64,000 bases of DNA from Dehalococcoidia bacterium. Lineage in GTDB: Bacteria > Chloroflexota > Dehalococcoidia > Lucifugimonadales > UBA6952. Made by a program: the position numbers and the translations under genes. Below are positions 12,084 to 14,694 of this stretch, in pieces. How positions within the stretch are numbered: the first letter of the stretch is position 1; each line of letters starts with the position of its first letter. The notes under the pieces were generated by a model. It had not been told where the DNA came from. It was given only the letters and a program-made list of their open reading frames with translations, and did no database searches. Where the stretch lies: positions 2,463-66,462 of the forward strand of contig JBJKVQ010000021.1 in assembly GCA_045562575.1 (NCBI GenBank), read 5' to 3'.

Positions 12084-12264
12084 TTTATTCTCCACAATAT
12101 TATTGATTAAAGGTATAAAAATTATAGCTGATCTAACCTGATAATAACAAGATTGAATATGAGTTTTATTTATCAGTCAATTATGTATGACTTTTATGCT
12201 TGTACCAAGTTTCCACATCACTGTAGTATTGAAATATTCACAATTATGTAAAGGTAGGGAAAAA

Positions 12265-13233
12265 ATGGTAAATGAAAATACTTTAGCATTCCAAGATATG
12301 GGTGGTGGATCCAATATGCTACCTAAATCTGAAAGACCAAAAATTGTTGATATGCGATGTAGATTAACAACTGCTTCACAATCAGACTACTTTCGACAAC
12401 GCACACAACACAGTGGAGCATATGACTCTATAAATGCATTTAAAGATGGATCTATTGAATCTTTCTTTCGAGATCTTGATGAAGCTGGCGTTACAACAGC
12501 TGTATCTGTATCAGGAATGAATAAAGGTATGACTTTAGGACATAGTGTATTCCCAGAACGAACAACTTCTAATGACGAGCAAGCTCAAATCCAAAAAGAA
12601 AACCCTGCTAGATTTGTAGCATGTGCGGGTGTAGATGCCTGGGGCGTTTTTCACGATCCGTTAGAAGAAATAGAACGTTGCAAAAAACTAGGATTCAAAG
12701 TTGTATTTATTGAGCCTGGTAGAGGACCGAATTATGCTGATAACCTAGCAGATCCACGGCTTTATCCTATTTACCAGAAGTGTCTTGATTTAGACATAGC
12801 AATTAGCCCCCAAACTTCCGGACCATTAGGTGGACTTAATATTGACTATGCCCATCCTAAATATATTGATCAGGTAGCGCATGATTTTCCAGATCTAACA
12901 ATAATTTGTGGTCATGGCCATTATCCATATATTCGAGAAATCATTACTATAGCAAGTATGAGAAGAGATAATATATATGTATCTCCTGATGCTTATTTAA
13001 CTATGCTAGGTACAGAAGATTGGGTTAAAGCAGTGAATAGTTCTTGGGGTATAGCTGATAGATTTATTTTCGGTAGCGCATACCCACTACTAAACCTAAC
13101 AAATTACACTAATTTCTTTTTCTCCCTTCCTTGGAAAGAAGAAGTGTTAGATAAAATCTGTTGGAAAAATGCTATTAATGCACTCAAACTCCACGATGTA
13201 CCGGAAATTAAAGAACTCTATGGATTAGATTAA
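12265..13233 (+). CDS. Amidohydrolase family 2 (TIM-barrel) protein with an atypical N-terminal motif
   Basis: DPRLYPIY..C, HP.YIDQVA.DFPDLTIICGHG.YPY, FIFGSAYP. Likely start ATG 12265 after AAGGTAGG. Confidence 0.85.
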   Translation: MVNENTLAFQDMGGGSNMLPKSERPKIVDMRCRLTTASQSDYFRQRTQHSGAYDSINAFKDGSIESFFRDLDEAGVTTAVSVSGMNKGMTLGHSVFPERTTSNDEQAQIQKENPARFVACAGVDAWGVFHDPLEEIERCKKLGFKVVFIEPGRGPNYADNLADPRLYPIYQKCLDLDIAISPQTSGPLGGLNIDYAHPKYIDQVAHDFPDLTIICGHGHYPYIREIITIASMRRDNIYVSPDAYLTMLGTEDWVKAVNSSWGIADRFIFGSAYPLLNLTNYTNFFFSLPWKEEVLDKICWKNAINALKLHDVPEIKELYGLD

Positions 13234-13237
13234 TACT

Positions 13238-14134
13238 ATGAATGATGAGCAATTTGACCCTGCATTTCGGCTAGCTGTTTCATACATTGATAAATCACGA
13301 CATTTTTATGCAGCACAAGGATATGAAATTCCTTATCGATGGGCTATAAATGGGGAAGTCCCTTTTCAAAAAATGACTAAACCACTATCCGAATGTAATG
13401 TTGGATTAGTTACTACAGCATCATTACCCAATCCAGATATATCCCTAGATTTTGATCCAGGAATATTGCAAATTGGATCTACTTATCAATTTCCAACTAC
13501 ACCTACACCCAATTCACTTTATACTATGGATAGATCATGGGATAAAAAAGCTACACACACGCATGACTTAGGTTCATTTTTCCCATTAGACCATCTAAAA
13601 TCTTTAGTCAAAGAAAAAAGAATCAACTCAATTTCAGAACATTTTTATGGTGCTCCTACTGACTACTCTCAACGAAAAACTAATCAAAATGTAGCCCCAG
13701 AAATATTAGCTTATATGCAAAAAGACAAAGTTGATGTTGCAATATTAGTACCTCTGTGACCTGTTTGCCATCAAACCGTGAGTTTGGTTGCACGACACCT
13801 GGAGGAAAATAATATTCCTACAGTTATAATAGGATCTGCAAGAGATATTGTTGAACAATGTGGAGTGCCAAGATACATATTTTCTGATTTTCCTCTTGGG
13901 AATCCTGTTGGTCTACCATATGATTCAGAAATGCAGATTGAAATTACGAAAATGGCATTAACACTTTTGGAAGATGCAAAGTTTCCTAGATCAACCATAC
14001 AAACGCCTTACAAATGGGATACTCATAAATGGCGAAAAGAATATATGGAAGTTAATGACTCCAACAGAGCAATTCTGGCACGAGCAGGTGAAATACGACG
14101 AGCTAGACAATCAGATCGTAAAAATGCTAATTAA
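13238..14134 (+). CDS. PrdB/GrdB-like selenoprotein B family protein (298 aa, predicted Sec at codon 174)
   Basis: ORFs 13238-13759 and 13778-14134 are in the same frame, joined by TGA (13757-13759): DKVDVAILVPL-U-PVCHQTVSLVARHLEENNIPTV. N-terminal PF..MTKPLSECNVGLVTTA and C-terminal PR..F.DFPLG.P.G resemble PrdB/GrdB. Confidence 0.85.
13766..13792 (+). promoter_or_regulatory. Candidate bacterial SECIS hairpin
   Basis: UGCCAUCAAAC-CGUGA-GUUUGGUUGCA: 10 of 11 stem positions pair (one G-U, one C/U mismatch). The loop starts 18 nt after the UGA and has G at its second position. Confidence 0.6.
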
Positions 14135-14694
14135 TGATTTGTCGCAGCCTTTCTCACAACATTTTCGCCCCAACAAATTACACGACTATTTTCATTTTTC
14201 AAAACATTTTTAGCTAAATTTTTAAGCCGAGTAATCTCATCGAGACGGCTAGCATCTAAATCTGGCCAAGTATCTAAATAAACAAAATCAAATTTTTTTT
14301 CTGTTACTACTAAATAATTATTTATATCATCATGAATTATTTCCATTTTAGGTGTTTTTATATAATCATAAACTAGATTAATAACATCTCTTGAAAATTC
14401 AACTATTGATATACTCTTAACTTTTTGTTCCAACCAGCGTGGAACAATACCTAACCCCAAACCACCAATTAAGACATCTGCATTATTAGGGCACCACCGA
14501 ACAGCACTTGACATTGTTAAACGTTCTTCTGGTCCATCACTCATCCACATTGTTTCATGATCGATTAACATAGCACCGGTGTATCGTATATATTTACCAT
14601 TAAAAAACAAGTGCGGGTGGTAACGATGAATTATAGAAAAATGGCCTGACCTTCCCTCAGGAATACGTATAAGTTTTGGTTTCTTATTTCTCAT
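14131..14694 (-). CDS. Class I SAM-dependent methyltransferase, spermidine-synthase-like
   Basis: WMSD.P.E, VLIGGLGLG (motif I), IVE....I.LV, IIHDD, FDFVYLDTW. Confidence 0.75.
   Translation of the reverse strand: MRNKKPKLIRIPEGRSGHFSIIHRYHPHLFFNGKYIRYTGAMLIDHETMWMSDGPEERLTMSSAVRWCPNNADVLIGGLGLGIVPRWLEQKVKSISIVEFSRDVINLVYDYIKTPKMEIIHDDINNYLVVTEKKFDFVYLDTWPDLDASRLDEITRLKNLAKNVLKNENSRVICWGENVVRKAATNH

Follow-up and report, generated by a model that had tools for sequence, protein, structure and literature searches.

A selenoprotein gene of the PrdB/GrdB superfamily predicted to be read through an in-frame UGA in a marine Dehalococcoidia genome, and probably not a D-proline reductase

Comparative evidence makes it very probable that positions 13238-14134 of the window, by which we mean the whole 64,000-nucleotide stretch of Dehalococcoidia DNA that was analyzed, form a single, intact gene that encodes a PrdB/GrdB-superfamily selenoprotein. 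Its UGA would be decoded with the aid of a hairpin, and its product is predicted to be a stand-alone U174-P-V-C177 enzyme whose substrate is probably not D-proline. Under translation table 11, the region is returned as two open reading frames, 13238..13759 (173 aa) and 13778..14134 (118 aa, with a GTG start). A sequence-only reading of this DNA had proposed that the two are a single frame, and this proposal stands: between the ATG at 13238 and the TAA ending at 14134, the 298-codon frame contains one in-frame stop, the TGA at 13757-13759, which is codon 174. The read-through product carries the motif V-P-L-U-P-V-C-H-Q and reads ...VDVAILVPL-U-PVCHQTVSLVARHLE... or, quoted at greater length, ...KVDVAILVPL-U-PVCHQTVSLVARHLEENN...; across the Sec site itself, it reads ...VPL-U-PVCHQTVSLVAR. 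Because the protein matches PrdB on both sides of the TGA and the TGA column is conserved in homologs, the single frame is not a product of chance. The gene and its predicted active-site codons are located as follows.

13238..14134, + strand: PrdB/GrdB-like selenoprotein gene, 298 residues, with ATG at 13238 and TAA at 14132-14134
13757..13759, + strand: UGA codon 174, predicted to be read as Sec, the first residue of the U-P-V-C redox motif
13766..13768, + strand: TGC codon of Cys177, likely the resolving cysteine of U-x-x-C

Matches to the read-through protein (P0001) were found in 28 of 60 related genomes, and a TGA lay inside 40 of the 41 matches listed. When 21 relatives were aligned, the TGA fell in a single column in 20 of them, and the proline after it and the cysteine three residues on were invariant; the Cys177 column was invariant in a 66-sequence alignment as well. 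The one remaining relative (L030, on contig C87 of genome G054) has serine at the position of codon 174, in the motif V-A-V-S-P-V-C. To judge from its sequence, this form, which has no redox-active residue there, may be noncatalytic or altered in function.

A scan of one genome per species yielded at least 584 relatives, and the best 80 loci, 49 to 88% identical, were analyzed. Codon 174 is TGA in 79 of these best 80 loci and TGT (Cys) in one (L085). Their hosts are Dehalococcoidia and other Chloroflexota, Acidimicrobiia, Myxococcota/Deltaproteobacteria, SAR324, Alphaproteobacteria, and Gammaproteobacteria, and the closest named record among them is a Dehalococcoidia metagenome-assembled genome (MAG) at 88% identity. 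Among the Acidimicrobiia there is a cultured carrier, Ilumatobacter nonamiensis (ortholog L119). Both relatives from the host's own genus keep the TGA, at 86 to 88% protein identity. The 120 database proteins retrieved comprised 115 with a Cys-form motif (some of these "Cys" entries may be Sec forms displayed as C), 3 with W, and 2 stubs of 173 aa. The Cys-form relatives are continuous proteins of about 291 to 298 aa, some of them named from Bradyrhizobium strains. The expectation of the sequence-only reading, that homologs would have TGA or Cys at codon 174 with conservation on both sides, was thus borne out by TGA in 79 of the 80 loci, TGT in the other, and the 115 Cys-form proteins.

The part of the gene beyond the TGA was compared with that of the two genus orthologs. 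For codons 175-298, the numbers of codons with synonymous-only and with nonsynonymous differences were 37/12 and 34/17, much like those for codons 1-173 (50/22 and 51/24), and 39 of 52 and 43 of 58 differences after the TGA were at third codon positions. In light of the synonymous excess and the third-position differences, we conclude that the C-terminal part is translated in the same frame.

The host is a marine Dehalococcoidia of the SAR202 type with a small, AT-rich genome, represented by an assembly of 1.45 Mb in 44 contigs that is 88% complete. Its genome had been predicted to encode selA, selB, selC, and selD, and all four were found: a tRNA-Sec (57.8 bits; called tRNA-SeC, anticodon tca, by ARAGORN), selA (519.5 bits), selB (348.8 bits), and selD (350.6 bits). 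All score above the family cutoffs, and all lie on contigs other than that of the window. The selD gene itself contains an in-frame TGA, so that the host selenophosphate synthetase appears to be a selenoprotein as well.

Host contig C4, 29339-30262 (L018:1441-2520): selD, with one in-frame TGA in the N-terminal active-site loop, ...SHCAGUAAK...

We take this TGA site to be the known Sec/Cys position of SelD. Among 700 stop-to-stop frames of at least 300 codons in the host genome, 485 end in TAA, 145 in TAG, and 70 in TGA; since TGA ends 70 of these long frames, a general reassignment of the codon is excluded.

In bacteria, the SECIS element is a stem-loop that directly follows the UGA at a characteristic spacing and has a G in its apical loop. 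A candidate element of this kind, with a 7-bp stem, a CGUGA loop, a start 10 nt past the UGA, and three compensated pairs, is located within the gene.

13770..13788, + strand: SECIS-like upper stem-loop, 7-bp stem AUCAAAC/GUUUGGU starting 10 nt after the UGA
13762..13797, + strand: extended hairpin, which adds a weaker lower stem (13762-13768 with 13790-13797), -18.2 kcal/mol

In the upper stem, 13770-13776 pairs with 13782-13788, closing the apical loop at 13777-13781. The case for this putative element is carried by comparative evidence, not by folding energy. Folded alone, the hairpin is unremarkable (z = -1.19; 25 of 200 shuffled sequences match or exceed its stability), its lower stem is poorly conserved across loci, and a search of the whole window against Rfam at gathering thresholds gave no matches. 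Nearly all Sec-form loci fold the identical 7-bp stem and loop, the exceptions being L068, which has no canonical hairpin, and L107, L108, L110, and L114, which have a mismatch. RNAalifold, to which the structure was not supplied, recovered a 6-bp core of the upper stem. Compensatory changes were seen at three pairs when 78 distinct rows of the alignment were counted: pair 21-37 is CG in 67, UA in 5, and UG in 5 rows (CG to UA five times); pair 24-34 is GC in 70, AU in 4, and GU in 4 (GC to AU four times); and pair 25-33 is AU in 69, UA in 2, and GC in 1 (AU to UA or GC three times). The CAA/UUG of the window stem is itself a compensated variant, the majority of loci having CAG/CUG. Overall, 81.0% of cells pair, against 28.8 to 42.5% with the partner slid by one to three columns, in a count that favors the window structure because the structure counted was derived from the window sequence.

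The loop hardly varies, even at the third positions of its Thr and Val codons, and this holds in the 34% GC window and in visibly GC-rich loci alike. The valine encoded by the loop GUG is found in 79 of 80 Sec forms, compared with 71 of 115 Cys-form database proteins, and L085, the sole Cys form verified at the DNA level, is without the hairpin. Part of the hairpin conservation is due to the protein, since the hairpin lies inside the conserved coding stretch H-Q-T-V-S-L-V.

An alternative account of the TGA would be that it is a recent nonsense mutation of a TGC or TGT cysteine codon and that the gene is a pseudogene. Cys-form homologs do exist, and TGY to TGA takes a single base change, but the same TGA is shared by 79 of 80 orthologous loci from many phyla and by both genus relatives, synonymous changes far outnumber nonsynonymous ones after it, the hairpin is conserved, and the full Sec machinery is present; together these observations leave the pseudogene explanation highly improbable. 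We give just as little credence to two separate genes (one of 173 aa and one of 118 aa from the GTG at 13778), or to a TGA that means Trp or Gly under an alternative code, even though table 11 yields exactly those two frames and three database entries have W at the codon. The stretch from the TGA to the GTG encodes P-V-C-H-Q-T, residues that rank with the best conserved in the family, with Cys177 invariant; the Cys-form relatives run through the junction as continuous proteins of about 291 to 298 aa; TGA is a working stop that ends 70 of the 700 long frames; and the residue aligned in homologs is Cys, not Trp or Gly. The reading of the gene as encoding a 298-aa selenoenzyme, made from the sequence alone, is therefore the one we retain as very probable, supported by the Sec machinery, the conserved TGA, the hairpin, and the coding constraint after the TGA.

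The read-through protein was queried against family models with C written for U. On TIGR04483, the NCBIfam model of PrdB, it scored 96.4 bits (E value of 1.7e-27), with an alignment that covers residues 43-260, spans the TGA, and takes in model positions 20-234 of 238; in the host-genome search, the 13238-14134 gene scored 90.8 bits on the same model. The equivalog cutoff of TIGR04483 is 300 bits. Scores were lower on the GrdH model (43.7 bits), on TIGR01918 for the GrdB/F/H subfamily (32.6 bits against a cutoff of 65.45, and 298 aa against about 430), and on the GrdB model (28.2 bits against a cutoff of 602), while the Pfam GRDB family PF07355 was passed marginally, with 23.6 bits against a gathering threshold of 22 and over residues 40-171 only. 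From the scores on these five models, we conclude that the protein belongs to the PrdB/GrdB superfamily and is the equivalog of no characterized enzyme. The original label "PrdB/GrdB-like" is apt in just this sense: the protein is neither a PrdB nor a GrdB equivalog, and a PrdA/GrdE partner was not found.

The window protein resembles PrdB (TIGR04483; Clostridium sticklandii) in having Sec in a U-x-x-C at the equivalent place. It is also of similar size, with 298 aa compared with about 26 kDa for PrdB in the available part of a review that traces the C. sticklandii enzyme to Kabisch et al. 1999 (PMC13188914). It differs from PrdB in an extra conserved N-terminal segment, in which Y16, Y24, and W35 are invariant in the 66-sequence alignment, and in its setting, which is without prd operon context and in which the PrdA proprotein/pyruvoyl subunit was not found. 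Whereas PrdB comes from amino-acid-fermenting clostridia, the hosts here are marine and other environmental lineages plus the cultured Ilumatobacter. The superfamily and the Sec position at the start of U-x-x-C are common to the window protein and to GrdB, GrdF, and GrdH (PF07355, TIGR01917/TIGR01918). The latter are proteins of about 430 aa that are paired with GrdE and work with GrdA; in contrast, the window protein has 298 aa, scores 28 to 44 bits on their models, and has no PF09338 neighbor.

In the classical enzymes, a pyruvoyl subunit (PrdA or GrdE, PF09338) is indispensable, and PrdA is the one that holds D-proline. PF09338 had no match in the host genome, whose 88% completeness leaves absence unproven, none in two genus relatives (98% and 92% complete), and none in five more ortholog carriers (four chromosome-level assemblies and I. 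nonamiensis). As a positive control, the model matched 7 of the 60 relatives at 220 to 380 bits, and in at least five cases the match directly adjoins a long GrdB-type gene that likewise contains a TGA; from these matches beside long GrdB-type genes, we conclude that the search works and that the long forms keep their partner. Among the 28 genomes that match P0001, 21 have no PF09338. GrdA (PF04723) had no match in the host genome, with a model that matched no control genome either.

The gene immediately upstream in the window encodes a member of the Amidohydro_2 family.

12187..13233, + strand: Amidohydro_2 (PF04909) gene, 78.9 bits, upstream and 4 nt from the selenoprotein start

Of the 80 loci, L044 (88% identical) is the only one to share this adjacency, and just 4 have a relative of the amidohydrolase gene at a distance of up to 4 kb. 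Amidohydro_2 was rejected as a conserved partner on these counts and is regarded as lineage specific. A Pfam scan of 78 upstream neighbors found no recurrent family among them beyond close relatives; they were a mixture of thiolase, acyl-CoA dehydrogenase, AMP-binding, acyltransferase, SDR, GST, EthD, TPR, Lon, and others. An SDR neighbor cluster of 48 loci, obtained by all-against-all BLAST, was set aside as not clean, being contaminated by shadow ORFs of GC-rich genomes.

A rival reading, implied by the database names, is that the gene encodes the B subunit of a genuine D-proline (or glycine/betaine) reductase and that the PrdA/GrdE pyruvoyl subunit is encoded elsewhere. PrdB TIGR04483 is indeed the best family match, relatives are named "D-proline reductase (dithiol) PrdB" or "glycine reductase" in databases, one of the 78 upstream neighbors is a proline-racemase-family gene (L106), and the host genome is 88% complete. 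The scores nevertheless fall short of the enzyme-model cutoffs (96.4 against 300 bits for PrdB, 32.6 against 65.45 for TIGR01918, and 28.2 against 602 for GrdB); PF09338, for which 7 of 60 relatives gave strong matches beside long GrdB-type genes, had no match in the host, the two genus relatives, or the five further carriers; GrdA was not found in the host genome, in a search without a positive control; and the 78 upstream neighbors hold no recurrent partner gene. We consider a genuine reductase B subunit improbable. Because the pyruvoyl subunit PrdA was not found, the substrate is probably not D-proline, and we favor the view that the protein is a U-x-x-C selenol/thiol oxidoreductase that works alone. 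It is likely, though with less assurance than for the window gene itself, that the short "PrdB" proteins without PrdA are a separate class of stand-alone U-x-x-C selenoenzymes, not proline reductases, present in at least six bacterial lineages and with the SECIS within the H-Q-T-V-S-L codons.

If decoding follows the standard bacterial Sec pathway, SelB and Sec-tRNA(Sec) would bind the hairpin at 13770-13788, directly 3' of the UGA, and selenocysteine would go in at position 174 in place of termination. The stand-alone enzyme would then have as its active site the U174-P-V-C177 pair, which in a three-layer alpha/beta fold would lie where a helix begins. Its chemistry may parallel that of PrdB and GrdB: attack on the substrate by the selenol, resolution of the adduct by Cys177 with formation of a selenenyl-sulfide, and reduction of the latter by a dithiol, for example, thioredoxin. 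An AlphaFold2 model built from the 66-sequence alignment (pLDDT 90.5, pTM 0.90) places Sec174 between a strand (167-171) and a helix (175-190). In the PDB, no sequence reached an E value below 0.5 in a profile search, and no structure had an E value of 0.001 or better in a Foldseek comparison. VIA-align returned only generic three-layer alpha/beta matches, of the LacI/periplasmic-binding type and SDR, with Z scores of 7.8 to 10.2, a commonly seen range. The modeled fold is a generic three-layer alpha/beta sandwich, from which we draw no functional inference.

The host genome contains a second PrdB-like gene with an in-frame TGA.

Host contig C30, 23891-24592 (L043:1261-2238): second PrdB-like selenoprotein gene, 325 aa, one TGA

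Its product is 30% identical to that of the window gene, has the motif S-T-U-P-V-C-N-R-S, and scores 169.5 bits on TIGR04483; the gene starts 10 nt downstream of an FAA-hydrolase-family gene. At another locus (L031), a gene of this second type is followed by an Amidohydro_2 gene. Long GrdB-type selenoprotein genes adjoin GrdE/PrdA-family genes in genomes G006, G034, G039, G046, G050, G054, and G057 (for example, L126 to L129). The long GrdB-type genes reach seven copies (in G054), which points to expanded glycine/betaine-type reductase systems in the order of the host genome.

Proteins of this description have been catalogued in the sea for some time. In the available part of the 2005 Sargasso Sea study, "Proline reductase (PrdB)," with a UXXC motif, is the third most abundant selenoprotein family, with 42 Sec and 1 Cys sequences (PMC1088965), and the GOS survey of 2008, as far as its available text goes, gives the PrdB family (pfam07355) 235 Sec sequences in 38 samples and 110 Cys homologs (PMC2398784). 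D-Proline reductase (TIGR04483, UxxC) is listed among verified selenoproteins in the accessible portions of later reviews (PMC13188914, PMC9312934). The window gene has in common with the families of the two marine surveys, as these are described there (PMC1088965, PMC2398784), a relation to pfam07355, the UxxC Sec motif, a marine origin, and a preponderance of Sec over Cys forms. By the description of the survey sets, it is most simply placed as a member of this marine "PrdB" selenoprotein family and, as an ordinary member of a long-catalogued family, is a gene of low novelty.

The same surveys, in the parts available, treat the family as D-proline reductase, whereas here PrdA was looked for and not found. 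The available texts of PMC1088965 and PMC1794560 contain no mention of "PrdA," literature searches under the terms tried turned up nothing on PrdB forms without PrdA, and those joining SAR202 with selenocysteine returned only unrelated papers. For GrdB-like proteins, the literature found was listed under fluoroacetate dehalorespiration in Synergistota. The family is thus among the most abundant marine selenoproteins, yet the name "D-proline reductase" is unsupported by the genomic evidence here, and the customary name is probably wrong. Since the name lacks this support and both a cultured carrier and Bradyrhizobium Cys forms exist, the real substrate is an experimentally approachable question.

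Automatic annotation had been expected to break the gene, and it does so: the 173-aa stubs P0003 and P0010 end in ...VPL at the TGA, and P0010 carries the record name "hypothetical protein [SAR202 cluster bacterium]." Three further entries (P0002, P0084, and P0115) are full length, with W at the Sec position. These evidently come from contigs called under TGA=Trp, a wrong genetic-code assignment caused by the selenoprotein gene. Once the read-through is annotated, a conserved enzyme is recovered and the lineage can be recognized as one that uses selenium.

At its 3' end, the selenoprotein gene meets a convergent ORF of 187 aa (14131..14694, - strand), and the stop codons of the two overlap in the palindrome TTAA at 14131-14134. 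The convergent ORF has only weak spermidine-synthase-like matches (E value of 0.002, below cutoff).

In metatranscriptomes from three studies, parts of 12252-13813 are represented by low-depth contigs, including three that run across the boundary between the amidohydrolase and selenoprotein genes; none of the contigs covers the 3' third of the gene. Such libraries may contain DNA, and a piece that crosses the TGA is an inverted chimera, so that these contigs offer weak support for expression at most and have no bearing on read-through. DNA nearly identical to 12187-14134 was found in marine or seawater metagenome runs from at least eight studies, with fragments in the three metatranscriptome studies. 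From the occurrence of this near-identical DNA across marine metagenome and metatranscriptome studies, we conclude that the lineage is widespread in the sea.
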